A stretch of DNA of 30,877 nt from a virus (Duplodnaviria; Heunggongvirae; Uroviricota; Caudoviricetes), in the IMG/VR virus record IMGVR_UViG_2778261069_000012, positions 1 to 30,877 of that record; one strand, written 5' to 3'. A program made the translations under genes and the position numbers. The notes below the pieces were generated by a model, which saw only the letters and a list, made by a program, of their open reading frames with translations, made no database searches and had not been told where the DNA came from. Below are positions 1 to 30,877 of the stretch, one piece after another (within the stretch, counting starts at the first letter, position 1; every line of letters starts with the position of its first letter).

Positions 1-450
1 ATGATCAATACTAAAACTCCTTTCGTACTTCTGGGTCTGAACCATGATGATAATCTGGATATGATGCATGTTTTCGCTAATCGTGGTTATAACATCATTC
101 GTCATTCCGAAGACTCCAATTTCTCAACTGCTTTCTATGCTCTTAAACGTAATGGTCGCCCTACGGTGATCGTAGACTGCTTTACTGATGAAGGTCGTGA
201 ACAATACAACAACATTCCGGCAATTATTGTTCGTGATGACCTGCCGTTTGATGTTCGTGAATATGACGTTGATTTAGGCTCTTACTATGGGATCGCCGAT
301 CTTGACCAGATTATGGCTGATTACGGTAAACAACCCGCTCAGGAAGCCCCAGAAGAAGATGAACAAGACGAAGATGACGACTACGCACCAATCTGTTTCT
401 CTTCTCAGAATGGCTTCTACGGTTACGATGAAGGCTTAGATATGCTGTAA
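1..450 (+). CDS. hypothetical protein with acidic C-terminus; may be 5'-truncated by the window edge
   Basis: 149-codon ORF starting at nt 1; E/D-rich tail (EEDEQDEDDDY); no motif recognised. Confidence 0.5.
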   Translation: MINTKTPFVLLGLNHDDNLDMMHVFANRGYNIIRHSEDSNFSTAFYALKRNGRPTVIVDCFTDEGREQYNNIPAIIVRDDLPFDVREYDVDLGSYYGIADLDQIMADYGKQPAQEAPEEDEQDEDDDYAPICFSSQNGFYGYDEGLDML

Positions 451-486
451 GTTAGGTCAACCCTTTGGCGTCTTGTCAAGGGGGTG

Positions 487-515
487 TTGACAAAATTTTC
501 TGACTTTTTTATGAT
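487..515 (+). promoter_or_regulatory. sigma70-like promoter candidate
   Basis: TTGACA (487-492), 17-nt spacer, TATGAT (510-515), about 55 nt upstream of the ATG at 572; sits in a cluster of TTGAC-type hexamers. Confidence 0.4.
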
Positions 516-571
516 TATCGCACTTGACAATTTTGAACCTATTTGACCTAGATTTGTAAAGAGGATGTAAC

Positions 572-904
572 ATGAAAGAATTTACCATCACTAAATCCCT
601 GTATGACTGGACTGTTAAAATCTCCGGCAAAACCGTTTCTGTAAGCCCTAGCCATGTAGAAAATGATTGGGGCGTATCCCGTGAAACAATCTCCCGTAGT
701 ATGCATGTTCCGTTTGATCTGATGTCCTTAACTGGTATTCATGCAATGCTGGAAGTTCGCGAACAATTCGAAGCTGGTAATCACAATGCGGCTCCAGTTA
801 GCAATCACCTTCTTACCAATGAAGAACGTGAAATCATCGAAAACTGGCGTTATGAGTATGCGATTCCTTACTACGAAGAAGATCAGGTAGAAATCGATTG
901 GTGA
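572..904 (+). CDS. hypothetical protein (110 aa)
   Basis: ORF preceded by AGAGGA Shine-Dalgarno about 7 nt upstream; no motif recognised. Confidence 0.55.
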   Translation: MKEFTITKSLYDWTVKISGKTVSVSPSHVENDWGVSRETISRSMHVPFDLMSLTGIHAMLEVREQFEAGNHNAAPVSNHLLTNEEREIIENWRYEYAIPYYEEDQVEIDW

Positions 905-993
905 TAAATTTCTATTATAAATAAAATTGTTCCGGTGATGCTGCCGGAACTAGGAGGACCAAATCACTAAACCGTTTAAGGGGAATTTTTACT

Positions 994-1869
994 ATGAATA
1001 CTGTTACTACTATGAATACTGCTACCGTTTCTTTTGATGCTTCTCTGACTGCTACAAAGAAAGAATGGCAAATCGCTAAACCTGCTTCAATGTCTCTGGT
1101 TGTTGATAACACCAAACCGCTTACCATGTCTACTTTGCAGATCGCGCAAATGATGAATCGCGTAGACCGTCATCGTGATATTAAGCGAACTGTTGATCGC
1201 CTTGTTGCTTCTGGTGTAATCGTCCACACGCCAACGGCGCGCGAACAATTAGAGGATAAATTTGGTCGTTCTCGTGAAATTGAAGTTTACCTTCTTGATG
1301 AACGTTCCTCTTACATTGTTGTTGCTCAGATTTCGCCAGAATTTACCGCTTTTATTGTTGATGAATGGAAACGACTGAAAGAAGAAAATGAAAAACTTCG
1401 CTCGACTCCTGTTAATCCATACGAAAACTTCGAAGAAACAGATTGGATTGAACTGGCGTTAGAGAAAACCCGCGAAAATAAACGCCTTGTTGAATTGCAT
1501 GTACGTAAAGCTATCGACACTCACAGCTTAACCCGTCTTCTGGGCGAAAAACGCGGCTCTGTGAAGGTACAAATGATTCTGAAAGGGTTATGTGCTGCTG
1601 GTGTCCTTGAGCGTCGTCTGGATGCTTCTGGTAAGCCTAACGGCTATGATCTGCTGCCTCCTGGCTATATGTTCGCTCGTATGTCGGCACACGGTCAGAT
1701 CGAGTTCACTGCTGATGCTATCCCGCATCTCGTAAAACTCGGATTGCTTGAAGAAGAAAAGGCAGCAACTTTGAAATTGCCACAGCCTAACAACTCACGA
1801 GCAATCGTCAATAATACTGCTTTGCTGATTCGTCAGAATGCTGGATCACTGGAACACTTCGGATTGTAA
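994..1869 (+). CDS. Rha-family phage regulatory protein (antirepressor-like)
   Basis: Residues 45-115 (LTMSTLQIAQMMNRVDRHRDIKRTVDRL ... YLLDERSSYIVVAQISPEF) resemble the Phage_pRha domain from memory; SD AAGGGGA upstream; intrinsic terminator follows. Confidence 0.6.
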   Translation: MNTVTTMNTATVSFDASLTATKKEWQIAKPASMSLVVDNTKPLTMSTLQIAQMMNRVDRHRDIKRTVDRLVASGVIVHTPTAREQLEDKFGRSREIEVYLLDERSSYIVVAQISPEFTAFIVDEWKRLKEENEKLRSTPVNPYENFEETDWIELALEKTRENKRLVELHVRKAIDTHSLTRLLGEKRGSVKVQMILKGLCAAGVLERRLDASGKPNGYDLLPPGYMFARMSAHGQIEFTADAIPHLVKLGLLEEEKAATLKLPQPNNSRAIVNNTALLIRQNAGSLEHFGL

Positions 1870-1877
1870 TAATTTTT

Positions 1878-1903
1878 GCCCCTGAATTTCAGGGGCTTTT
1901 TTG
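1878..1903 (+). terminator. rho-independent terminator after the Rha-like gene
   Basis: GCCCCT / AGGGGC stem, 7-nt loop, then TTTTTT. Confidence 0.7.
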
Positions 1904-1988
1904 TATCTGGAGTTTTTCGCTGAAACCCTGCAATACAGATTTTCGAAATAATCAATGACTTAGAGATGTGCTCAGTTTTGAGCGGATA

Positions 1989-2018
1989 TAAAAAAAGGCC
2001 AACCCCGAAGGATTGGCC
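1989..2018 (-). terminator. rho-independent terminator for the minus-strand cassette
   Basis: GGCCAA / TTGGCC stem with 10-nt loop; the minus-strand transcript follows it with a U-run (A8 on the + strand at 1989-1996). Confidence 0.6.
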
Positions 2019-2025
2019 TAGAGAA

Positions 2026-2256
2026 TCAAATTCCTGTTGCTTCTACCATTTCACCATCAACCTGAACAAAGAATTTCAAATCAACTTTATGGAGTGATTT
2101 GTAGAATTGAGCGATTGAAATACCGTGTTCGCTCAATACTTGTTCTTTTTCGGCTTTACCTTTCGGTGCTTGATAGTACGCTTTTACAATCGCTGCCAGT
2201 TGTTCACGATCAAAACGGCAAGGACGACCGCGAGTAGCTTTAGTAGTCATAGTCAT
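2026..2256 (-). CDS. small basic protein, putative DNA-binding (AT-hook-like RGRP motif)
   Basis: 76-aa ORF; N-terminal TRGRPCRFDREQL and HTH-like EHGISIAQFYKSL; co-oriented with the 200-aa ORF upstream of it. Confidence 0.5.
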   Translation of the reverse strand: MTMTTKATRGRPCRFDREQLAAIVKAYYQAPKGKAEKEQVLSEHGISIAQFYKSLHKVDLKFFVQVDGEMVEATGI

Positions 2257-2284
2257 TTCTCCAAATTAAAGTGAATGTTCACCT

Positions 2285-2887
2285 TTATTTAGAGGACTTA
2301 CATTTTATCGGAAAAAGTTCTCCATCGTCAACCGACATAAAGAACTCTGCCTTAATCCCGTACTTCTTCAACCGTGAATAGTATGTACCCCGACTTATAT
2401 CAACCTTGCGCAGCACTTCGAAGAACTCTTTAGGATCGTTGTAATAATGGCTATATCGCACGTTAGCGAGTTCAACGAACAATTCCCTTGTATCACCATA
2501 CCCTTTCTTGAATGCCTCGTTACGATAGCGTGTAACAGCGTGATTCAATCTCTTCTGTTTCAACACTTCTCGGATCGGCTTCCACTGCAACCTATAGATA
2601 GGACCGTCATCAATGCGATAATAACGCTTGATATCAAAATCAAACCAATCTCGGACTCTCCGAAACTCTGTATGTGATGTTCTATGCTTCTTAAAGAAGT
2701 TGTGAACGTCTGTATAACCATTATCACGGTAAAATTCTATTAAAATCTCTTTCGCTTCCTCACGACTAAAACCGGATGTTGTGTAATCAGTCTTTAAGTG
2801 CTTATGCTTGACTGGCAAACGGTATTCATGATCGGTACAAGACAAGGCTAATTCTAATTCATCTCTTTGTTTCTGATTAATTAGCAT
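2285..2887 (-). CDS. hypothetical basic, aromatic-rich protein with C-terminal HTH-like segment
   Basis: 200-aa ORF; SD AAGGGGG directly upstream on the minus strand; C-terminal [17 protein letters not shown] looks HTH-like; divergent from terL. Confidence 0.55.
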
Positions 2888-20216: not shown

Positions 20217-20636
20217 ATGCTAAAAACTAGGCTTATCACCGATTACATCAATTCTTTAATAGGTCAGGAGTTCGTTCAAGGCGAGAATGATTGCAATATA
20301 ATTGCATGTAAGATCATCGATATTCTCGCTGGTACTGACCTATATAATTCTCTTTATAAAAAATATTCAACTAAAGAAGAAGGCTTGAAAATCTGCAAAG
20401 AATTAAGCGGATACACAAATATCCTTCAACCAATTAAGAAACATTTCAAATTAGTCACTGATGATTTACAGGACGGCGACTTACTGGTCACAGCCCACAA
20501 ATTAGGAAACCGCAAATATTATTCCGTAGTTCCTCATTATTCCGGTTATGGCCTCGTTGAAGAAGATGGTATCTGGATGACCATTCCTGTTTCAGACATT
20601 GACTATGAACAAGTTTATAGATTCGGGGGTGAATAA
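20217..20636 (+). CDS. tail tip assembly protein, gpK-like NlpC/P60-type cysteine peptidase domain
   Basis: Start at ATG 20217 (SD GGAGG 8 nt upstream); ENDC catalytic-Cys motif near the N-terminus with His residues downstream; stop overlaps the next start (TAATG). Confidence 0.5.
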   Translation: MLKTRLITDYINSLIGQEFVQGENDCNIIACKIIDILAGTDLYNSLYKKYSTKEEGLKICKELSGYTNILQPIKKHFKLVTDDLQDGDLLVTAHKLGNRKYYSVVPHYSGYGLVEEDGIWMTIPVSDIDYEQVYRFGGE

Positions 20637-23600
20637 TGGGATTTGAAATATTAGTAGGCGCGGTTATTGCTGGTGCGTCTGCTGGGATGGCTGCTGCTGC
20701 AACGTTTTCTGTTATGACCGCAGTCGCTATCGGTATGGCTGCTGGTGCAATGACCTTGATCGCTTCCACTGTAGGCGCACCAAAAACACCGAAAGTACAA
20801 AGCCCAGATAATGCGGTGACACTAGGAACATCAAACGATCCTAAGACAGTATTACCCGTTCTTTTTGGTACTACCCGCACGGGTGCAATCTGCGTTTACA
20901 AGGCAATTTCACAGCGTGAAAATAACAAGCTGGTACAAATTTTTGCTATTGCCGAAGGTGAGATCGATCACTTTAAAGCACTGCACATCGATAATAAAAA
21001 CGTTCTCATTAGCCAGAATATGACAATTCGTGATGGCATTCTCGATAAAGGAAACATTAAAGACGAATACCGCAAAGTTTTAGAAGTCGAGTTTCGCACG
21101 GGTAAAAATCCTAACACTGCATTGGATTTAGCTAAACATCATTTGGGCGCTGATTGGGATGATCGGTATCAGGGTAACGGCATTGCGACCATGTGTATTG
21201 TTTTACGTCGTGATGACAAATCTTTGGCTGCTGGTGTTGATATTCTCCAGCCTAATAGCCAGGTAGCGGTCGATGTTATGGGCTTAAAGATTCGTAACCT
21301 TGAAACCAATGCTATTGAGGCTAGCACTAACGGCGTGGACCAGATTTTCCATTATCTGACAAATACAAAGTATGGTCTTAGTGTACCGATTGAAAATATT
21401 AACGTTGATTCATTCCTGAAAGTGCGTAAACAAGTACGCCAGATGGATTTACATTCCAACGGTGCATGTGATCCGAACGCCAGCTTTAAAGAGAACTTAA
21501 CTAGCCTTATGCAGACTTTCGGCGGGGTGATGTTCGAATCCTTTGGACGTATTACGCTGAAACTGGATGCTCCTGATATTGTTAAGCATACCTTCAATGA
21601 AGACAATATCATGATGGGTAAGGTATCACTGAAAACAGGTGGCACTAACGGTTATTTCAATACCATTAACGCGATGTATCAAGAACCATCAATCGACTAT
21701 TCAGAGCAAATGCTACGTTATCCGGCTGATGCTGAAAACGATGCTACTATTCGTCAAGATGGTCGAATTATCGCTAAAGACATTGAATATCGTTTTGTTA
21801 AGTCTAAAGCCCAGATTGATAAACTAGCGAGTGTAGAACGAAATAAATCTCGTATCACTCAGGTTATCAGCTTTATGACTACTGACGCATTCACTGCCGA
21901 AGTGTGGGATGTTATTAGCGTTACCTATGATGAATTAAAACTGAATAATTCACTTTGGCGCATTACTGCAATTGATCGTTCTATTGATTCTGGTATTGCT
22001 GGGATGATGACTATCACCGCTACAGAATATAATTCTCAGGTTTATACTGACCTGAACTATGCGGCTAACCCAGATAACCGACCAAGTGGTTTACCGGATT
22101 CAATGACAGTACAGAAGCCTACTAATTTCAGAATTAAGGCAACTGGTGAAACCATCCACGGTAAAAACGTAACTTTGACATGGGATGCACCGGAAGATTT
22201 CAACCGCTACGGTTTCCAGATTGATTATCGTGTGAGTGGATCACCTAACTGGATTAAGCTGGGACAGACTTCACAGCAAATTTTCAATATCAATGCACTG
22301 GCAAAAGATCGCTCCTACGATTACCGCGTTTGTGCTTTCGGTATTATTGCTCGTTCCGAATGGGTGGAACTGGTTAACCAGAATCCTACTGTTACCTATG
22401 AATTGCCGACTCCGGTTATTCGAATCAAAAATCAGGGTAGCACGCCTGGTACTTTCGAAGGCAATGATCTGATTATCGAATGGGAAAATCAGCAACAATT
22501 AGATGTGATGATCAACGGTGAAGCTAACAAGTTTAGTGACCTGTTTGAAGCATACATTATCAAGGTAACTAACAAGGCTGGTAAGTCTATTCAGTACCGT
22601 ACCCGCGATCCTGAATCATGGACTTATACGCTTGATATGAACCAGTTTAACGGCCTTTCCCGTGAATTGACGGTAGAAGTATCAGTCAAGGGCTATAACA
22701 ACTCAGAGAGCGCCCCAGCGCGTTTAGTGGCTATCAACCCACAACATAAGCCGATGAAAGGTTTTAGTGCGCGTGGTGGCTTTAATACTGCGTTTGTTAG
22801 CTGGGCGGATGACGTAGAACATGACTATGCAGGGTCAATCATCCAGTATGCAACCGATAATACTTTCTCCGATGCAAGGGCAGTGACTACCAATAGCGTT
22901 AGTCATACTTCCTTTGATTTGGCTGACGGTGATTATTATATCCGTGGTGCTCACTATGATATTTTCGGTATGGATGATGCTGTTTGGTCTGAACCGTATT
23001 TCATGCAAATGAAATCTACCATTAGCTGGGACGATCAGGACAAAGAAGCACTGGAAGACCTGATTGGTTTACAAGATCGCTTAGATGAAACCATCGCGGA
23101 TGCTATTGCTCAAGCTGGCGCTAATGCCGATGCTAAGATTGATGCAATGCATAAACAGATTACTACCGAGACAGGGCAGACGGTCCAAGCCTCAGCCGAT
23201 ACTCTCAAGAGTCTGATTGCTACCAGTGAGCAAGCCAGCGCAACTAAGATTGATCAGGTTAAAGCTGAACTGAAAGGCGATATCACCAAAGAAGTTAGCG
23301 CATCCGCTACTACCCTGAAACAAGCAATTGCTACCAGTGAGGCAGCAAGCGCAAGTAAGATTGATCAAGTTCGGGTAGAAATGGATGGCAAGATTGCTGG
23401 TGTGAATCAGGAAGCAGATGTAAAAATCGATGCTTTGAAGGGAACCATTAACAGCAAATATAATCTGGCAGTTAATGCAGATGGTCGCGTGGCTGGTATT
23501 CATATGAGCGCAACCAATGATCCGGCAGAACCGACAAGAATCATCTTTACGGCTGATAAAATCGCGGTAGCTCCACAAGACGGATCAGAAGTTTGTCCGT

Positions 23601-24412
23601 TTGGTATCGAAGGTAACAAGGTTTATCTCGATAATGCCATGATTCGTAATGGGGCGATCGGAACAGCCCAGATCAACGATGCTAGCATCACCACGGCTAA
23701 AATCGGCACAGCCCAGATTAACGGTGCTCACATCCAGCACGCCCAGATCGGAACAGGTCATATTATTGATGGCTCTATCGATAATGCTAAAATTGGTAAC
23801 TATATCCAGTCTTATAACTGGAATGGTAACGATGGATGGTATATCGGCAAAGATGGCACTTGTCATTTTAGACACGCTAATATTCGTGGTCATTTGGTGG
23901 CTGATTCCGGCGAAATGAACAACGTAACGATTAATTCAAGTTGCCGCATTTTGGGTATGCTTGATGCTAATCAGGTGCGTGGTGACTTCGTGAAAGCTAT
24001 TGGTCGTCGATTCCCACATTGGGACGAAAACCCATCATTGGGCTATCCCGGTTATCCGCAAGGTACAATCACTGTTCGAATTGAAGATGATCACCCGTTT
24101 GATCGTCAGATTATCGTTCCGGCTATTAGCTTTGGTGGTCTTAATGCGCGTGAAGGCTCGAATAACAATACTTACTATGATAACTGTCGCTTGATTGTTC
24201 GCAAGAACGGTGCTGAATTATATAACCGTGCATATGGCAGACAGACTGGATTGTATAGTGCTGTTATTGATATGCCAGCCGGACACGGACCAGTTACGCT
24301 AACTTTTGAAGTAAGTTCAAGCGCAATCAACAACTGGACTCCCAGCACATGGATCAGCGATCTTTCTGTAATTGTTACTAAGAAAGCCGCTACGGGTATT
24401 TCTGTTTCTTAA
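20636..24412 (+). CDS. tail tip / host-specificity protein, gpJ-like, with an N-terminal gpI-C-like hydrophobic domain fused in frame
   Basis: 1258 aa; N-terminal about 95 aa (Gly/Ala-rich hydrophobic stretch, PKTPKVQSPDN, VLPVLFGTTRTGA) resembles the C-terminal half of lambda gpI; C-terminal about 150 aa (DDHPFDRQIIVP ... VIDMPAGHGPVTLTF ... ATGISVS) resembles the lambda gpJ C-terminus from memory. Confidence 0.88.
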   Translation: MGFEILVGAVIAGASAGMAAAATFSVMTAVAIGMAAGAMTLIASTVGAPKTPKVQSPDNAVTLGTSNDPKTVLPVLFGTTRTGAICVYKAISQRENNKLVQIFAIAEGEIDHFKALHIDNKNVLISQNMTIRDGILDKGNIKDEYRKVLEVEFRTGKNPNTALDLAKHHLGADWDDRYQGNGIATMCIVLRRDDKSLAAGVDILQPNSQVAVDVMGLKIRNLETNAIEASTNGVDQIFHYLTNTKYGLSVPIENINVDSFLKVRKQVRQMDLHSNGACDPNASFKENLTSLMQTFGGVMFESFGRITLKLDAPDIVKHTFNEDNIMMGKVSLKTGGTNGYFNTINAMYQEPSIDYSEQMLRYPADAENDATIRQDGRIIAKDIEYRFVKSKAQIDKLASVERNKSRITQVISFMTTDAFTAEVWDVISVTYDELKLNNSLWRITAIDRSIDSGIAGMMTITATEYNSQVYTDLNYAANPDNRPSGLPDSMTVQKPTNFRIKATGETIHGKNVTLTWDAPEDFNRYGFQIDYRVSGSPNWIKLGQTSQQIFNINALAKDRSYDYRVCAFGIIARSEWVELVNQNPTVTYELPTPVIRIKNQGSTPGTFEGNDLIIEWENQQQLDVMINGEANKFSDLFEAYIIKVTNKAGKSIQYRTRDPESWTYTLDMNQFNGLSRELTVEVSVKGYNNSESAPARLVAINPQHKPMKGFSARGGFNTAFVSWADDVEHDYAGSIIQYATDNTFSDARAVTTNSVSHTSFDLADGDYYIRGAHYDIFGMDDAVWSEPYFMQMKSTISWDDQDKEALEDLIGLQDRLDETIADAIAQAGANADAKIDAMHKQITTETGQTVQASADTLKSLIATSEQASATKIDQVKAELKGDITKEVSASATTLKQAIATSEAASASKIDQVRVEMDGKIAGVNQEADVKIDALKGTINSKYNLAVNADGRVAGIHMSATNDPAEPTRIIFTADKIAVAPQDGSEVCPFGIEGNKVYLDNAMIRNGAIGTAQINDASITTAKIGTAQINGAHIQHAQIGTGHIIDGSIDNAKIGNYIQSYNWNGNDGWYIGKDGTCHFRHANIRGHLVADSGEMNNVTINSSCRILGMLDANQVRGDFVKAIGRRFPHWDENPSLGYPGYPQGTITVRIEDDHPFDRQIIVPAISFGGLNAREGSNNNTYYDNCRLIVRKNGAELYNRAYGRQTGLYSAVIDMPAGHGPVTLTFEVSSSAINNWTPSTWISDLSVIVTKKAATGISVS
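23189..23410 (+). repeat. in-frame tandem duplication (about 111 nt / 37 aa) within the gpJ-like gene
   Basis: SADTLKSLIATSEQASATKIDQVKAELKG versus SATTLKQAIATSEAASASKIDQVRVEMDG; the nearby IGTAQIN motif also occurs twice. Confidence 0.6.
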
Positions 24413-24471: not shown

Positions 24472-24517
24472 TCTAAATAATTTTGCCATTAAACCATATA
24501 AAAATATCGGGGGCGTA

Positions 24518-24796
24518 ATGACTGAAATTATATATGGCGGTATCGGTGTTATCGCCTTAATTTGCGGTGGATTATGGAGACTTCACCGAAATCAATTAGC
24601 AACTGAAAATAGATTGTCGAAATTGGAATCCAGCGACGCATTGTTAAACCAGAAGTTTGAGACGATGCAGAATAACCATACTCAGATTGCTGAACGTGTT
24701 TACCAAATGGAACAAACACTACACGGTATAGAGAAGAAAGTGGTTGCGATGGACGCTAAGTTTGACCAAGTTCTCGACATACTCAAACAAAAATAA
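24518..24796 (+). CDS. membrane protein with N-terminal transmembrane segment and coiled-coil tail (holin-like or spanin-like candidate)
   Basis: 92 aa; hydrophobic IIYGGIGVIALICGGLW followed by a heptad-like region; position upstream of the endolysin. Confidence 0.5.
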   Translation: MTEIIYGGIGVIALICGGLWRLHRNQLATENRLSKLESSDALLNQKFETMQNNHTQIAERVYQMEQTLHGIEKKVVAMDAKFDQVLDILKQK

Positions 24797-26066: not shown

Positions 26067-26420
26067 ATGTTAAGTAAGCATTTTTCTCGCAAGGAATTTA
26101 AATGTAAATGCGGAAAATGTGATTATGATACAATCGACGCTGAATTACTGGTGATTCTTGAGGATGTACGAGAGCACTTCGGTAAACCAGTGATTATTAA
26201 CAGTGGCAACCGTTGCCCGACTCATAACAAGAATGTAGGCGGGGCAGCCAATAGCTATCACGTTCGAGGCCGCGCGGCTGACATTGTTATCAAGGGTGTC
26301 TCGCCTGATATTGTTCATGCTTATCTTGATGGGAAATATCCTACTCAATACGGCTTAGGAAAATATAAAACCTTTACGCATATTGATTCCAGATCAAAAA
26401 AATCACGGTGGAATGGATAA
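26067..26420 (+). CDS. endolysin candidate, peptidase M15-type zinc peptidase
   Basis: 117 aa; SGNRCPTHNKNVGGAANSYHVRGRAADI ... THID matches the H/D/H zinc-binding signature of small M15 cell-wall peptidases; SD AAGGGGGTAA; no signal peptide. Confidence 0.78.
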   Translation: MLSKHFSRKEFKCKCGKCDYDTIDAELLVILEDVREHFGKPVIINSGNRCPTHNKNVGGAANSYHVRGRAADIVIKGVSPDIVHAYLDGKYPTQYGLGKYKTFTHIDSRSKKSRWNG

Positions 26421-26793: not shown

Positions 26794-26832
26794 ATAGTAG
26801 TGAATATTATTTTATTGAGGATTCACTACTAT
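26794..26832 (+). promoter_or_regulatory. 12-bp stem enclosing the SD and start codon of the downstream nuclease gene
   Basis: ATAGTAGTGAAT (26794-26805) pairs perfectly with ATTCACTACTAT (26821-26832); loop contains GAGG; the 3' arm includes the AT of the ATG at 26831. Confidence 0.55.
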
Positions 26833-27829
26833 GAATACTACTTTAGCAAAGGATATCGAATTTACCGCAAAAAGCAAACGTGCGACCCCTCCGGTCGAAT
26901 ATGAAACCAGAATCATTAAAGTTTGTCAAGTGCATGGATGGTTATACAGTGGTTTTGTGCTTCCTGTAAAGAAACCATTCCAGAACACCAAAGTTTGCAT
27001 AGAAGTTAACGGAAAGGTTAAAACGCCATGTATTAGTCATGTTCTAACTGGTCAGTTTACTGGCAAAGATAGAGTATCACCGCCTAAGAAGAAGTTTAGA
27101 TTTACCGAAGAAGAACACTTAGAAAACGCTCGCAAGTTCTACAAGCCGATAGGGTGGGATGTGTTAGGTCTGGCTGAACCTTATCAGGGTGTTGACACTA
27201 AACTAATTCTTCGTTGTAAGTGCCACGGAAAGATTCACAAGAAAGGTGATTTACACAATAACCGCAGACAAGGCGGGTTAACATGCCCTTTGGTTAGGGG
27301 TGTACTTAAATCAATTCAGAATGGTAGAAAACAGGTTATCAGAAACAAGTTTGCACAGCGCCCTATGCACTTTTATCTAATTCGTGTTGGTGAGAAGTTT
27401 TTCAAATATGGAATTACCACTCGCAAAGATCCGATGCAACGGGTAAGAGAACACCAGAAGCACACCAGCGAGAAAATCACCTTTGAATGCTCACATTTGT
27501 TTAACATTGGATGGAAAGCTGGTGATTTAGAAATGGGGATTAAAAAGAATATTCAGGGCAAGAAAATCCCACGTAAGGTAATGAATAGCGGATTCACAGA
27601 AACGCTACCGATTAGCAAGCTGAAAGATGTTAAATCATTCATCAATGAATACATCCACACCAACCCATCTAAGCCAATGTATTTTGATGATACCAACGCA
27701 ATCAATCTGAACAACTACATTAGTGATGAAGACATAGAACGAGATTTATCGCAGTGGATGAATGCACCGTTAGCTGATTTAACACCGGAAGACTTAGAAC
27801 TCGATTTAAGCCCTTTAGAGGCTCTTTAA
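26831..27829 (+). CDS. GIY-YIG / T5orf172-like nuclease-domain protein with N-terminal Cys/His-rich region (homing-endonuclease-like)
   Basis: 332 aa; FYLIRVGEKFFKYGITTRKDPMQRVREH matches the GIY-(9-11 aa)-YIG-R-H pattern with conserved downstream FECS and SGFTE; N-terminal CxxH / CxCH clusters. Confidence 0.5.
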   Translation: MNTTLAKDIEFTAKSKRATPPVEYETRIIKVCQVHGWLYSGFVLPVKKPFQNTKVCIEVNGKVKTPCISHVLTGQFTGKDRVSPPKKKFRFTEEEHLENARKFYKPIGWDVLGLAEPYQGVDTKLILRCKCHGKIHKKGDLHNNRRQGGLTCPLVRGVLKSIQNGRKQVIRNKFAQRPMHFYLIRVGEKFFKYGITTRKDPMQRVREHQKHTSEKITFECSHLFNIGWKAGDLEMGIKKNIQGKKIPRKVMNSGFTETLPISKLKDVKSFINEYIHTNPSKPMYFDDTNAINLNNYISDEDIERDLSQWMNAPLADLTPEDLELDLSPLEAL

Positions 27830-27902: not shown

Positions 27903-29582
27903 TTAAATTCCAAATTCCTGTAATGGACCTGGTATTTCCTCTTCTGGTTTCCAGTTCTTATCTGTCAGCATGTCTAAACATGGATGCAAAACAAGCCCGT
28001 TACTCTCCAGAATCTGCCTATCATTGATAGTTTTCAAATCAATGAATATCCGGCCTTTCCTCGTTCCTCTTGAATTTTCTATTACAACTCTCTGGGTCTT
28101 TCCATCGATGTATTCCAGCACAAACAAGTTTTTATTTCTGTCAATCCTGCTACACCCGATCCGCTTTAGAGCTTGCTTAATCTTAAACCGGACCTTTAGT
28201 CGTTCCTCGTTATAAACATCTTCTAAATCAAATTCTGCGAGCTTCTCCCAGCCTTGAGAGTCCACAGAATACATTTCCTCTTCTGCCATCTTGATCTGAT
28301 TGTAGAGTGTTTCACGCTCGCTATTGAGGGTAGTAATCTGATCGGCTAGCTCCTTCGTTGCTCCTGTCATAGCAGAAAGGGCAATCAGGTTATCAATCTT
28401 GCGTGATATTTCATCAACCTGTACTTTCAACGCCGGAACCGGATTAGCCTTGTCCTCAGCAATCCAGATTTTATCAGCCAGCAATTGCAATACAGCTTTC
28501 TCTAATTGATCACCTCGAAAACTCCAGTTTGGATGCTCGCAATCAAGTCTACGTGAACGGGTCGCATCACATGTATAACGATACTGGTCAGAACGTTTGT
28601 TCGTTCCCTTCACTTTAACCATAGCGCAACCGCAATGATCACATTTCAATAGGCCAATACCACTAAGCAGGGGGATCGGTTTAACTTCTTCCTTGTCTCC
28701 AAAGTTCCATGCTCTAGCACCAATATTTTTCTTAAGGTGATAGAACGTAGCATCATCAATAACACGAGGGTAATAATTCTTTAACTCATAGTTAACACCA
28801 TCTACAGAGACTTCCTTGATACCAATCAAAGCGCGGGTATGGAACAACCTTTCAACCATTGCCCGTGACCATTTTGAATGCTTCTTATTACTAACCGCTG
28901 GTGGCGGTGTATATGTCTCGTTAAGGTGATCCAGTATTTCGGCGGTTGAACGTCCATTCTTCCGTAATTCCACAATCTCCTGAACAACAGGGAAGTACAC
29001 CGGATGAGGCAGCACATAACCGGAAGTGGTATCAGTCCACCACATATTCTTTCCAACTTCCTCGATAGCCACTGCCGGATTTTGTGGATTTTCTTGATGA
29101 GCTTTAATCTTAATCAATGCGCTTGAGTTAGTACGATTGCGCTTAGTCTGACTTTCCTCATTACCACGGATGAATAAAAGGATGGAGAACATCAGGTCCA
29201 TCGGATTAGCGGTAACAGTATCCAGCGAGTAGATCTTGTTATCCATGCCAGTAACAATGGTTATTCCCCTACGGATGATTGAAAGGAATAACTCCTGCGC
29301 ACTGACAATATCGGCACGGGATAAGCGGTCCAAGTTTTCAATGAATAGCCAGCTACCAACAGGAACGGATCTACCAATTGCATCAAGGAAACGAGATAGC
29401 GCCCCTGTTTTAGAGTTAGCACCCTTAAACGCAGATACACCCAGATCCTGATAATCATTTACCAGTTCAAGGTCATACTTTGCCGCAACCTCTCTCGCCA
29501 TCCTGATTTGTCGTTCATAACTCGAACCATCATTCTGACGCATAGACGAGAAGCGAATATACGAATACAGTTTAGTTTTCAT
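27903..29582 (-). CDS. large serine recombinase (integrase-type)
   Basis: 559 aa from ATG 29582 (the ORF track begins at an upstream TTG at 29597); N-terminal resolvase-type catalytic domain (YSYIRFSSMRQ ... ENLDRLSR); Cys-rich zinc-ribbon (CDHCGCAM ... C ... C); C-terminal coiled coil. Confidence 0.85.
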   Translation of the reverse strand: MKTKLYSYIRFSSMRQNDGSSYERQIRMAREVAAKYDLELVNDYQDLGVSAFKGANSKTGALSRFLDAIGRSVPVGSWLFIENLDRLSRADIVSAQELFLSIIRRGITIVTGMDNKIYSLDTVTANPMDLMFSILLFIRGNEESQTKRNRTNSSALIKIKAHQENPQNPAVAIEEVGKNMWWTDTTSGYVLPHPVYFPVVQEIVELRKNGRSTAEILDHLNETYTPPPAVSNKKHSKWSRAMVERLFHTRALIGIKEVSVDGVNYELKNYYPRVIDDATFYHLKKNIGARAWNFGDKEEVKPIPLLSGIGLLKCDHCGCAMVKVKGTNKRSDQYRYTCDATRSRRLDCEHPNWSFRGDQLEKAVLQLLADKIWIAEDKANPVPALKVQVDEISRKIDNLIALSAMTGATKELADQITTLNSERETLYNQIKMAEEEMYSVDSQGWEKLAEFDLEDVYNEERLKVRFKIKQALKRIGCSRIDRNKNLFVLEYIDGKTQRVVIENSRGTRKGRIFIDLKTINDRQILESNGLVLHPCLDMLTDKNWKPEEEIPGPLQEFGI

Positions 29583-29601
29583 ACCATTTCCAAACAAAAA
29601 C

Positions 29602-29631
29602 GCCCCTACCGCGTATTATAACGATAGGGGC
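29602..29631 (-). terminator. intrinsic terminator on the minus strand ending about 13 nt before the recombinase start codon
   Basis: GCCCCTA / TAGGGGC 7-bp stem with 16-nt loop containing TATAAT-like TTATAAT; U-run follows on the minus-strand transcript. Confidence 0.5.
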
Positions 29632-29647
29632 ATTGGTTAGTAAGTCA

Positions 29648-29893
29648 TTAATATTTCTTTCCAGTTAGTTTTGCATCACGTTTATTAATATCCTCGATAT
29701 GACTCCATACACACGCAGTAATAAAGTCGTCATCGTCACCAACTCCGGCAACCTGTGCTAATTCAGTACACAGTTGATTTAAAGAAGGTGCAACGGCAGC
29801 ACGCTTGACACTATCACCCTGTACATATTGTTCGGCATTTGCAGCACCAACCAAACCCAGAGCAAGAACAACACCCGCGATAATCTTTTTCAT
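29648..29893 (-). CDS. small secreted protein (signal-peptide-bearing; unknown function)
   Basis: 81 aa; N-terminal MKKIIAGVVLALGLVGAANA (type I signal peptide, AxA site); two Cys in the mature part; SD GAGGAA 8 nt upstream. Confidence 0.62.
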   Translation of the reverse strand: MKKIIAGVVLALGLVGAANAEQYVQGDSVKRAAVAPSLNQLCTELAQVAGVGDDDDFITACVWSHIEDINKRDAKLTGKKY

Positions 29894-29922
29894 AGTAGAA
29901 TTTCCTCTTGTTATTTTAATTA

Positions 29923-29938
29923 CGATATATTTATATCG
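29923..29938. promoter_or_regulatory. candidate operator: inverted repeat CGATATA-TT-TATATCG
   Basis: 7-bp arms with 2-bp spacer, 30-45 nt upstream of the secreted-protein start codon. Confidence 0.3.
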
Positions 29939-30064
29939 TTAAAAGTTGATGCTGATTACCAGACCAAACACAACCGCACCAATCAAATCAATCCAGTTAA
30001 TACACAATCCGCTATATTCTTTCTTGAATGTCTTGGATGAAATGCCATCATGAAATTGTTTCAT
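29939..30064 (-). CDS. small membrane peptide candidate (41 aa)
   Basis: MKQFHDGISSKTFKKEYSGLCINWIDLIGAVVFGLVISINF; hydrophobic C-terminal segment; SD GGGGTGAG upstream; not in the supplied ORF track (below its length cutoff). Confidence 0.35.
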   Translation of the reverse strand: MKQFHDGISSKTFKKEYSGLCINWIDLIGAVVFGLVISINF

Positions 30065-30067
30065 TGC

Positions 30068-30148
30068 TCACCCCATACTAACGACAATATAAGAAAGACT
30101 AATCATAGTTGTGAGACTACCTCCCACGAATGAGATAAAAGCTAACAT
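30068..30148 (-). CDS. tiny hydrophobic peptide candidate (26 aa)
   Basis: MLAFISFVGGSLTTMISLSYIVVSMG; SD GGAGA 7 nt upstream; stop lies 3 nt from the next ATG. Confidence 0.25.
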   Translation of the reverse strand: MLAFISFVGGSLTTMISLSYIVVSMG

Positions 30149-30161
30149 GTTTGATTCTCCA

Positions 30162-30191
30162 GTTTAAAAAGCGGTGGGAATTGCACCCACC
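30162..30191 (-). terminator. rho-independent terminator on the minus strand after the 128-aa gene
   Basis: GGTGGG-AATTGCA-CCCACC stem-loop with a U-run on the minus-strand transcript. Confidence 0.65.
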
Positions 30192-30205
30192 AAATTAGAA
30201 ATTAA

Positions 30206-30592
30206 TTAAGCGCGAACGATGGTCAGAGTATCCAGCAAACCTTTTTCGTATAATTCGAAACACGTTTTATATTGCTCAATCTGGAAACCATAGCGGGTGA
30301 TCTTATTCAGTAGGACAATCGCGCTATTCTCATCTAGGTATTGTCCTTGCTGTCCAATGACATAAGTCTCGCGGGATAGTTTCAGCTTACGGAAACCTTT
30401 AACACCTAATTCCTTAGCAACCGCTTTAATCTCTTTAATCTCACCCTCAGCCGCAACATATTCAGCGTCGATAATCTCAGGTGATGATCTCAGTGCTACC
30501 AGAACTAAGGCCATTGCTTCTTCTTCTGTACGCGCAACACCAGCTTTCTCGAAAGTCATCTCACCAAATTTACGAATCATGATATTGAACAT
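30206..30592 (-). CDS. hypothetical protein (128 aa)
   Basis: ORF with coding-like composition; no motif recognised. Confidence 0.55.
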   Translation of the reverse strand: MFNIMIRKFGEMTFEKAGVARTEEEAMALVLVALRSSPEIIDAEYVAAEGEIKEIKAVAKELGVKGFRKLKLSRETYVIGQQGQYLDENSAIVLLNKITRYGFQIEQYKTCFELYEKGLLDTLTIVRA

Positions 30593-30604
30593 TGTTTTGC
30601 TGCC

Positions 30605-30877
30605 TTACTTCTTGCTGATAAACTCTTTAGCGATAAAGTTGATTACTTCTTTCAGCTTCTTGTCTGTATCGATGCACGCCGGTAATTCTTCTTTAATCTC
30701 CTGCGGCAGATACACATTGCCTTTAAAGTGGAGGAAACCATCATTACCAATCATGTAGGAGAACATCCATTCACAATCGTTATCCGCTTCCCAGAACGCC
30801 ACGGCCTCATCGCCAATCAAGGTAATGTCCATGTTGCGACGTGCTGCGTAGTTGATGATTGCTTTACCGATGTTCAT
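30605..30877 (-). CDS. hypothetical protein; may extend beyond the window edge
   Basis: 90-codon ORF whose first ATG is at the last 3 nt of the window, so the true start may lie outside. Confidence 0.5.
   Translation of the reverse strand: MNIGKAIINYAARRNMDITLIGDEAVAFWEADNDCEWMFSYMIGNDGFLHFKGNVYLPQEIKEELPACIDTDKKLKEVINFIAKEFISKK

Follow-up and report, generated by a model that had tools for sequence, protein, structure and literature searches.

The stretch of DNA analysed here, referred to as the window, comprises 30,877 nucleotides (nt) of a Caudoviricetes record (IMG/VR IMGVR_UViG_2778261069_000012) and represents the late-gene and integrase end of an Escherichia coli prophage that has no close cultured relative. 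The subject of this analysis is a minus-strand open reading frame (ORF), ORF81, which encodes an 81-amino-acid (aa) precursor, and the exchangeable gene slot in which it resides. Reading inward from the attachment (att) junction, the genes and features on one strand are orf90, orf128, a terminator-like hairpin, a 26-aa ORF, a 41-aa ORF, a palindrome, ORF81, a terminator and a large serine recombinase (559-564 aa). The palindrome and the stop codon of the 41-aa ORF share one base, 29939, which opens the former and closes the latter. The coordinates are collected in Table 1.

Table 1. Features of the ORF81 slot and its surroundings, in window positions.
Feature	Position	Strand	Description and basis
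ORF81 cargo cassette	29631..29938	-	Palindrome, 5' untranslated region (UTR), coding sequence and 17-nt 3' spacer; from BLAST breakpoints and alignment
ORF81 coding sequence	29648..29893	-	81-aa precursor, stop included; ATG start at 29893, TAA at 29650-29648
Signal-peptide coding part (MKKIIAGVVLALGLVGAANA)	29834..29893	-	Hydropathy and AxA rule; predicted signal peptidase I cut after Ala20
Mature 61-aa domain	29651..29833	-	AlphaFold2 model, invariant columns, composition
Shine-Dalgarno-like AAGAGGA	29903..29909	-	10 nt ahead of the ORF81 ATG
Palindrome ACGATATA-AA-TATATCGT (minus-strand reading)	29922..29939		Arms 8+2+8; plus strand reads CGATATA-TT-TATATCG at 29923-29938
Intrinsic terminator (GCCCCTA...TAGGGGC and T-run)	29599..29634	-	14-pair stem; 13 nt after the ORF81 stop
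41-aa mini-ORF	29939..30064	-	C-terminal transmembrane segment; backbone gene; 5' border of the slot
26-aa hydrophobic mini-ORF MLAFISFVGGSLTTMISLSYIVVSMG	30068..30148	-	GGAG ribosome-binding site; first gene of the small unit
Upstream terminator-like hairpin	30172..30192	-	Closes orf128; brackets the mini-ORF/cargo unit
Large serine recombinase	27903..29597	-	Resolvase, Recombinase and Zn-ribbon domains; directly downstream of the slot

A comparison of 61 related loci reveals six states of the slot. The related loci match through the palindrome and the ribosome-binding site and again from the terminator on, and they differ between these points. The slot contains a beta-barrel protein (the barrel) of 132-139 aa in 20 of the 61 loci, ORF81 alone in 18, and a 113-aa N-terminally anchored coiled-coil protein followed by ORF81 in 13. 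No cargo is present in six loci (L043, L072-L075 and L113), a 348-aa CapR/T5orf172 nuclease that uses the same ATG is present in two (L005:3066-4112 and L041:578-1624), and a 130-aa lipoprotein with an LAGC lipobox (MKRLIIAGVVLAAFGLAGC...) is present in the remaining two, both metagenome contigs (L109 and L114). Every ORF81 variant examined occupies this same slot, the adjacency of slot and recombinase is the same in every related locus, and phages that are otherwise nearly identical may have an empty slot or entirely different cargo. The placement of ORF81 in a recombinase-proximal cluster by the initial annotation is thus borne out, and ORF81 is an accessory gene, which is present in some and absent from other close relatives and always lies directly upstream of the recombinase.

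The borders of the cassette are delimited by alignment with the empty site L043 and with the 137-aa cassette of L023. In the empty sites, the stop codon of the 41-aa ORF is followed by a 16-nt spacer and then by the unchanged terminator, which indicates that the terminator belongs to the backbone and not to the cassette. The 41-aa mini-ORF differs among the relatives mostly by synonymous changes and one in-frame indel; its most distant homologues found share 63% identity with it, and one RefSeq genome lists it as WP_274540528.1. L043 has another hydrophobic ORF, of 29 aa, in place of the 26-aa one. The guanine-plus-cytosine (GC) fraction is 0.387 for the cassette, 0.419 for ORF81, 0.421 for the window and 0.429 for the recombinase. 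In connection with the idea of a transposon or a miniature inverted-repeat transposable element, no terminal inverted repeats of the cassette are seen by eye at its 3' end.

Every occupied slot begins with a shared head, which consists of the 18-bp palindrome, a short UTR with GAGG and an ATGAAA start. The GAGG core of the Shine-Dalgarno-like site is kept in all 20 distinct cassette heads, with an offset of one or two columns in some alignment rows. In the two soluble cargo families, the head is followed by the same 20-codon signal peptide. The first 59 nt of the leader are identical at 59 of 59 positions between ORF81 and the unrelated 137/139-aa barrel gene, and the identity collapses at codon 20, which is the predicted cleavage site, such that the two genes differ only from the cleavage codon onward. 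The barrel protein carries a signal peptide identical to that of ORF81, together with an N-to-C cysteine pair and an unrelated mature domain. The combination of a shared head and differing contents indicates that cargo is exchanged by recombination between the head and the terminator/recombinase flank. Additionally, the synonymous divergence (dS) between the two allele groups of ORF81 is 0-0.135 in the leader as against about 1.25 in the mature part, which indicates that the 5' head is homogenised or exchanged independently of the mature domain.

ORF81 is a genuine gene on which purifying selection acts. Among 5.8 billion proteins searched, there are 12 clusters of homologues (79-85 aa, 73-98% identity), and E. 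coli is the source of every cluster that bears a source name. The product consists of the leader MKKIIAGVVLALGLVGAANA and the mature part EQYVQGDSVKRAAVAPSLNQLCTELAQVAGVGDDDDFITACVWSHIEDINKRDAKLTGKKY. C42 and C61 are invariant in all 13 family sequences, as are the motifs QYVQGDSVKR, SLNQLC, ITAC, EDIN and GKKY. Two allele groups are present, and the main difference between them is a loop that reads GVGDDDDF in one and GQPNDEEL in the other. The ratio of nonsynonymous to synonymous divergence (dN/dS) between the groups is 0.18 overall and 0.135 in the mature part (dN 0.17, dS about 1.25-1.29). The gene is regarded as constrained because of the 12 clusters with invariant cysteines and motifs and the dN/dS of 0.18. 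In RefSeq genomes of E. coli, the product is annotated as a hypothetical protein (WP_004030915.1 and WP_000719875.1).

The leader follows the rules for a Sec signal peptide. It begins with MKK (+2), continues with a 14-residue hydrophobic core (IIAGVVLALGLVGA) with an 11-residue Kyte-Doolittle mean of up to 2.87, and ends with A-N-A at positions -3 to -1, followed by E21. The call is based on these sequence rules and on the evolutionary evidence of the same leader on two unrelated mature domains, and it suggests that ORF81 would be exported by Sec, cleaved by signal peptidase I after A20 and released in the periplasm. A lipoprotein is ruled out, as the leader has no lipobox (L-[AS]-[GA]-C) and the first cysteine is residue 42. 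In the AlphaFold2 model, the leader is detached, with a predicted local distance difference test (pLDDT) score below 50, and the mature part is a two-helix hairpin (helices 28-49 and 55-77) with a pLDDT of 78-93 over residues 31-70. The mature part is acidic, with an isoelectric point (pI) of 4.8, and the variable loop GVGDDDDF is itself acidic. C42 and C61 occupy mirror positions of the predicted hairpin, and a disulfide that staples the hairpin in the periplasm is plausible. The initial annotation had described an 81-aa minus-strand ORF with a canonical Sec signal peptide, an AxA cleavage site and two cysteines in a mature domain of about 60 aa; the ORF is found as described and is conserved, the n, h and c regions and A-N-A fit the rules in a leader that is separable and also precedes the unrelated barrel, and the two cysteines lie in a mature part of 61 aa.

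The ORF81 family is an orphan. No match is found in the Pfam or NCBIfam models, among the PHROGs families at E <= 0.01, or among the PADLOC families at E <= 0.1, such that no curated model of anti-phage defence or exclusion is matched. A tblastn search of 50,697 phage records gives no match, and a profile search of 1.84 billion representatives recovers only the cluster of ORF81 itself and frameshifted fragments. Fold searches with the predicted model against the PDB (with Foldseek) and BFVD return only non-specific helical matches (E > 0.8), and a profile search of the PDB sequences (E <= 10) returns nothing real.

With regard to the other contents of the slot, all but one of the five are targeted to the envelope, the exception being a selfish nuclease. 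The 113-aa protein (loci including L004:3064-3405, L009-L014:3630-3971 and L018:981-1322) has an N-terminal transmembrane segment, a periplasmic coiled coil and two C-terminal cysteines. It lies ahead of ORF81 and is preceded by a variant UTR and ribosome-binding site of ~30 nt, such that this segment occurs twice in the slot and the palindrome once. Its layout resembles that of an i-spanin or of a membrane-anchored exclusion protein. The 130-aa lipoprotein is apparently a distant relative of the barrel, as judged by eye from shared sequence patterns. This cargo carries its own terminator in place of the backbone one, and the pairing of a soluble barrel with a lipoprotein parallels that of PliC and MliC. 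A gene for a CapR-repeat/T5orf172 (GIY-YIG-like) nuclease related to the 348-aa cargo nuclease lies at 26831-27829 on the plus strand of the window and converges on the recombinase; homing-type nucleases might drive local gene exchange.

The initial annotation reported an inverted repeat 30-45 nt upstream of the ATG, which is present and whose arms extend further than described. It was proposed to be an operator overlapping a promoter, with the caution that it could have arisen by chance. By the statistics of the window alone, this caution stands: 13 palindromes with arms of at least 7 bp are found, and 11.4 +/- 3.7 are expected from first-order Markov simulations, with a probability of ~1.5% that such a palindrome falls in a given stretch of 60 nt. 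The comparison among loci speaks otherwise. The palindrome opens all 55 occupied slots and is missing from all six empty ones, and its 14-nt core is invariant in 19 of the 20 distinct heads, whereas the last codons of the 41-aa ORF and the following UTR vary, with indels. The divergent head of L076 can otherwise no longer be recognised, yet its palindrome is kept as CGTTATA-AA-TATAACG, with a compensatory change of A-T to T-A. Two further positions vary (C/T and A/G), and at both the sense strand still allows wobble pairs. Across 7 pairs in 20 heads, 140 of 140 cells pair, with one compensatory and two wobble-type pairs. These observations suggest that the palindrome is probably selected and travels with the cargo. 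A hairpin on the sense strand accounts for the substitutions no less well than a protein site does, and the palindrome is more likely a sense-strand stem-loop at an intercistronic junction, or an element of the recombination junction, than a classical operator.

The alternative in which a dimeric regulator, of the phage or of the host, binds the 16-18 bp dyad and controls a promoter of the cargo draws on the perfect dyad with its 2-bp centre, which in this window lies between -35-like and -10-like hexamers (TTAACG-18-TAAAAT, 9/12 in a crude consensus scan), on the invariant core between variable flanks, and on the symmetric change of both half-sites in L076. However, the TAAAAT hexamer is found in this window only, the relatives having TCAAAT, TCAAAC or TCATTC, and the outer symmetry is broken by C to T in 5 of the 20 heads. 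In addition, the cassette carries no regulator gene, one palindrome is present per slot even with two cargo genes, and no second copy (<= 3 mismatches) exists in the window or in the whole 37-kb prophage L007 other than one two-mismatch match at chance level. An operator, as proposed in the initial annotation, is therefore unlikely, given the private -10 hexamer, the lack of a second copy and the lack of a regulator gene. The two-mismatch match (CCATATAAAAATATCG; CTATATAAAAATATCG at this place in L007) lies at 24494-24509 on the plus strand, 8 nt upstream of the ATG of the ORF at 24518-24796, and is probably a coincidence, as the count of such matches is at the chance level. A functionless palindrome, that is, an AT-rich chance dyad or an insertion scar conserved through a recent spread of the cassette, is slightly easier to entertain but still improbable: such palindromes are not over-represented in the window, the heads mostly resemble one another closely and the covariation comes from one sequence, but the invariance of the core beside a varying 5' UTR and varying last codons of the 41-aa ORF, and the dyad that L076 keeps by a compensatory change in an otherwise diverged head, both argue against it. 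A secondary att site of the recombinase is ruled out, as the palindrome bears no likeness to the rebuilt attP and attB with their GT core. A scan of 29300-30877 against Rfam gives two sub-threshold chance hits only.

A megablast search of the window against phages gives no match, and the best match of the prophage terminase has 44.6% identity. Near-identical DNA is present in 58 of 5,426 complete E. coli genomes (~1%) and ORF81 in 28 of them (~0.5%), and the carriers stem from a wide variety of animals and from humans. The element of E. coli PigCaeca_2 is integrated in ycdX, and the last base of the window lies ~40 bp from the junction; E. coli BS74R-D carries a 37-kb copy in hicB, and a third integration site lies near ydiJ. 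Related recombinases (87-100% identity) use ycdX, hicB or the site near ydiJ. From the junction sequences (L001:11330-11430, L006:10400-10520, and L007:11140-11260 and 48170-48240), attP is rebuilt as ~AGTTATTAGGG-GT-ACCCACAATAAC and attB in ycdX as CCCTAATATCAT-GT-TGACTACGTTAGGG, with GT as the probable crossover dinucleotide. The right arm of attP overlaps the region of the ribosome-binding site of orf90, a terminator closes the far-end gene just before attP, and the lysis genes, with an M15 peptidase, lie at 26067-26420 on the strand opposite to the cargo.

The genome of BS74R-D (NZ_CP063332.1; L007 and L121) holds two related elements, one in hicB and one in ycdX, whose recombinases are 87% identical and whose ORF81 copies agree at 79 of 81 residues. 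The hicB element is a siphophage-type prophage, and the ycdX element has a UvsW-like helicase beyond the recombinase. As the two elements differ in organisation, the module of att site, cargo and recombinase is common to differently organised elements. The whole element is only ~36 kb and has been decayed by IS1 or IS421 insertions in some genomes (L006 and L007). The proteins of the early region (window 1-2887; L007:11249-14305) are nearly all without a Pfam match, and no CI-like repressor is recognisable among them. A literature search for a ycdX prophage with a serine recombinase returned nothing relevant. In a scan of genome contigs with the recombinase, the only match is a 512-bp contig (L017; JANCAF010000145.1, labelled Actinacidiphila cocklensis) that is 99% identical, and it is most likely an assembly contamination.

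Taken together, these results favour, with moderate confidence, a reading in which ORF81 is a prophage cargo gene in a swap slot whose product is exported and acts in the envelope, and in which the palindrome is a selected element of the cassette. The ORF81 precursor would carry a cleavable Sec leader, pass into the periplasm and lose the leader by a cut behind Ala20, and its mature part would form a small acidic hairpin of two helices, with C42 and C61 probably joined by a disulfide. A role in the envelope is proposed because almost all contents of the slot are envelope-targeted. Judged from this context, the most likely activity of the small mature protein in the periplasm is to bind or inhibit some component of the envelope or of a phage, and its role would be of the lysogenic-conversion or superinfection-exclusion type.

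Several points weigh against this reading. The att junction lies ~40 bp upstream of orf90, such that the expression from the repressed prophage that conversion or exclusion would require is putative; no convincing sigma-70 promoter is found for the unit, which has two weak matches of which neither is conserved. None of the ORF81 homologues found has a known role, and the disulfide is read from the geometry of the hairpin and the predicted periplasmic location. The RNA hairpin of the palindrome is weak (minimum free energy of -5.7 kcal/mol), and its covariation rests on the single divergent sequence of L076, at a level that 23 of 500 shuffles also reach. In BS74R-D, both related elements carry ORF81, which argues weakly against the exclusion of its own kin. 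Furthermore, in a comparison of cargo with the C-termini of the tail-tip proteins in 26 IMG/VR contigs, the type of cargo does not track the tail-tip class. Both ORF81 and the barrel are found with the tail-tip classes that are 86% and ~81% identical to that of the window, which is encoded at 20636-24412, and the 98-99% class is the only one that is uniformly ORF81 (5 loci). A coupling of the cargo to the receptor-binding protein is not supported in view of this mixed cargo within classes.

The more specific proposal of superinfection exclusion or receptor masking, which builds on a guess by context in the initial annotation and in which ORF81 made by the lysogen blocks adsorption or DNA entry, is only tentative. 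A protein that is small, periplasmic, helical and acidic and has a cysteine pair has the general architecture of mature T4 Spackle, the slot adjoins the integrase, nearly all of the alternative contents are envelope proteins, and morons such as HK97 gp15 are known exclusion proteins. Such a protein might bind the periplasmic part of a receptor or transport complex or, as Spackle does, inhibit a tail-borne cell-wall hydrolase. However, ORF81 has no sequence or fold match to Spackle or to a known exclusion protein and no PADLOC match, it is not a lipoprotein, unlike Cor or Llp, and no conserved promoter that would be active in the prophage is found; the lack of coupling between cargo and tail-tip class and the two ORF81 copies of the double lysogen BS74R-D also count against exclusion. 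A bolder version, for which the probability is clearly low, regards the head (stem-loop, ribosome-binding site and fixed Sec leader) as a secretion-ready platform on which temperate coliphages of one family swap unrelated periplasmic effectors precisely at the signal-peptide junction, with ORF81 as a new class of anti-phage (superinfection-exclusion) effector and the barrel as a PliC/MliC-like inhibitor of incoming tail lysins; the swap would possibly be helped by the neighbouring GIY-YIG/CapR-type nucleases.

A role in the infection or lytic cycle is an unlikely alternative in which ORF81 would, for instance, modulate the timing of lysis or envelope events for the phage itself. The genes from the junction to the recombinase are co-directional, and the space between the junction and orf90 is too small for a promoter. 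The cargo also lacks a conserved promoter in front of it, the pair of successive terminators resembles control points of read-through, and the 113-aa partner has an i-spanin-like layout of transmembrane segment, periplasmic coiled coil and cysteines. Transcription would then come from the other prophage end, only after excision or circularisation, and would run over attP through orf90-orf128, the mini-ORFs and the cargo to the recombinase; against this route, a terminator closes the far-end gene just before attP. Moreover, the lysis genes lie elsewhere on the other strand, and the gene is dispensable, as the empty slots and other cargo indicate, which is more in keeping with an accessory than with a core lytic role. 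A still less probable option is a conversion factor for host fitness or virulence, which would provide stress tolerance, protection from colicins or toxins, or interaction with the host. The roles of morons are diverse (Lom, Bor and protection from colicin M), the carriers come from many animal and human sources and ORF81 has no similarity to known defence proteins, but there is no specific pointer to such a factor, no adjacent gene for a partner toxin and no known domain.

ORF81 is thus a new, uncharacterised member of a familiar class, the small exported accessory proteins of prophages, and the most interesting aspect is the swap slot with its shared leader. One slot and one export signal serve no fewer than two unrelated soluble domains of predicted periplasmic location, in addition to membrane and lipoprotein variants, and the locus provides a clean, testable case of how temperate phages diversify the envelope proteins that they give to their hosts. 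If phage entry is indeed blocked by ORF81 or the barrel, these proteins would enlarge the very small set of periplasmic exclusion proteins known from Gram-negative bacteria and would be relevant to the prediction of host range in phage therapy. If they have no effect on phages, they would still be uncharacterised lysogenic-conversion proteins of commensal and pathogenic E. coli.

Among known systems, Cor and Llp are outer-membrane lipoproteins, unlike ORF81, which has no lipobox cysteine and no sequence relation to them. Cor (phi80, N15 and HK022) and Llp of T5 are small phage-encoded envelope proteins that block receptors and protect the cell from further infection (PMC11436027, PMC9586334). 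The 130-aa lipoprotein cargo of L109 and L114 is nearer to this architecture and is unrelated in sequence as far as tested. The Sie2009/Ltp genes lie in the lysogeny module beside the integrase. They are exclusion genes of lactococcal and streptococcal temperate phages and encode exported or membrane-anchored proteins (PMC3952083). Unlike ORF81, they are found in Gram-positive hosts, encode lipoproteins or membrane-anchored proteins and have known expression from the prophage, and there is no sequence relation.

The closest functional analogue, without homology, is Spackle of T4, a periplasmic superinfection-exclusion protein. Its mature part of 75 aa is a bundle of five helices that contains a single disulfide and attaches to a basic surface of the tail lysozyme gp5 (PMC7677548; PDB 6X6O). 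As in Spackle, a cleaved periplasmic signal is combined in ORF81 with a small mature part (75 vs 61 aa) that is predicted to be all-helical and has a single cysteine pair; ORF81 is acidic (pI 4.8), and the partner surface of Spackle on gp5 is highly basic. However, neither a sequence match (profile against the PDB, E <= 10) nor a fold match (Foldseek against the PDB, E <= 10) relates the two proteins, the five-helix bundle of Spackle contrasts with the predicted two-helix hairpin of ORF81, and the gene contexts differ, Spackle belonging to the early genes of a virulent phage and ORF81 lying beside the integrase of a temperate one.

In its arrangement, ORF81 resembles the morons, of which some, such as gene 15 of HK97, encode superinfection-exclusion proteins (Juhala et al. 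2000; Cumby et al. 2012, reviewed in PMC3594210). Like morons, it is present in some and absent from other close relatives and encodes a small envelope protein between conserved gene blocks. Unlike morons, it has no demonstrable promoter of its own and no terminator of its own, as the downstream one belongs to the backbone and is present in the empty sites; its GC fraction (0.39-0.42) does not differ from that of the window (0.42), and behind its common head the slot takes no fewer than five types of cargo. HK97 gp15 resides in the inner membrane, whereas ORF81 is predicted to be cleaved and periplasmic. The slot also resembles the PeSL cassettes of T4-type phages, in which a short conserved stem-loop motif precedes varied, non-essential ORFan genes and provides homology for swapping. 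In the PeSLs, a terminator stem-loop is paired with a strong early promoter, and each genome has many of them, whereas the slot has one AT-rich stem of 7-8 bp, no strong promoter and a single locus, and, unlike in PeSLs, the shared homology runs into the coding sequence, namely the signal peptide.

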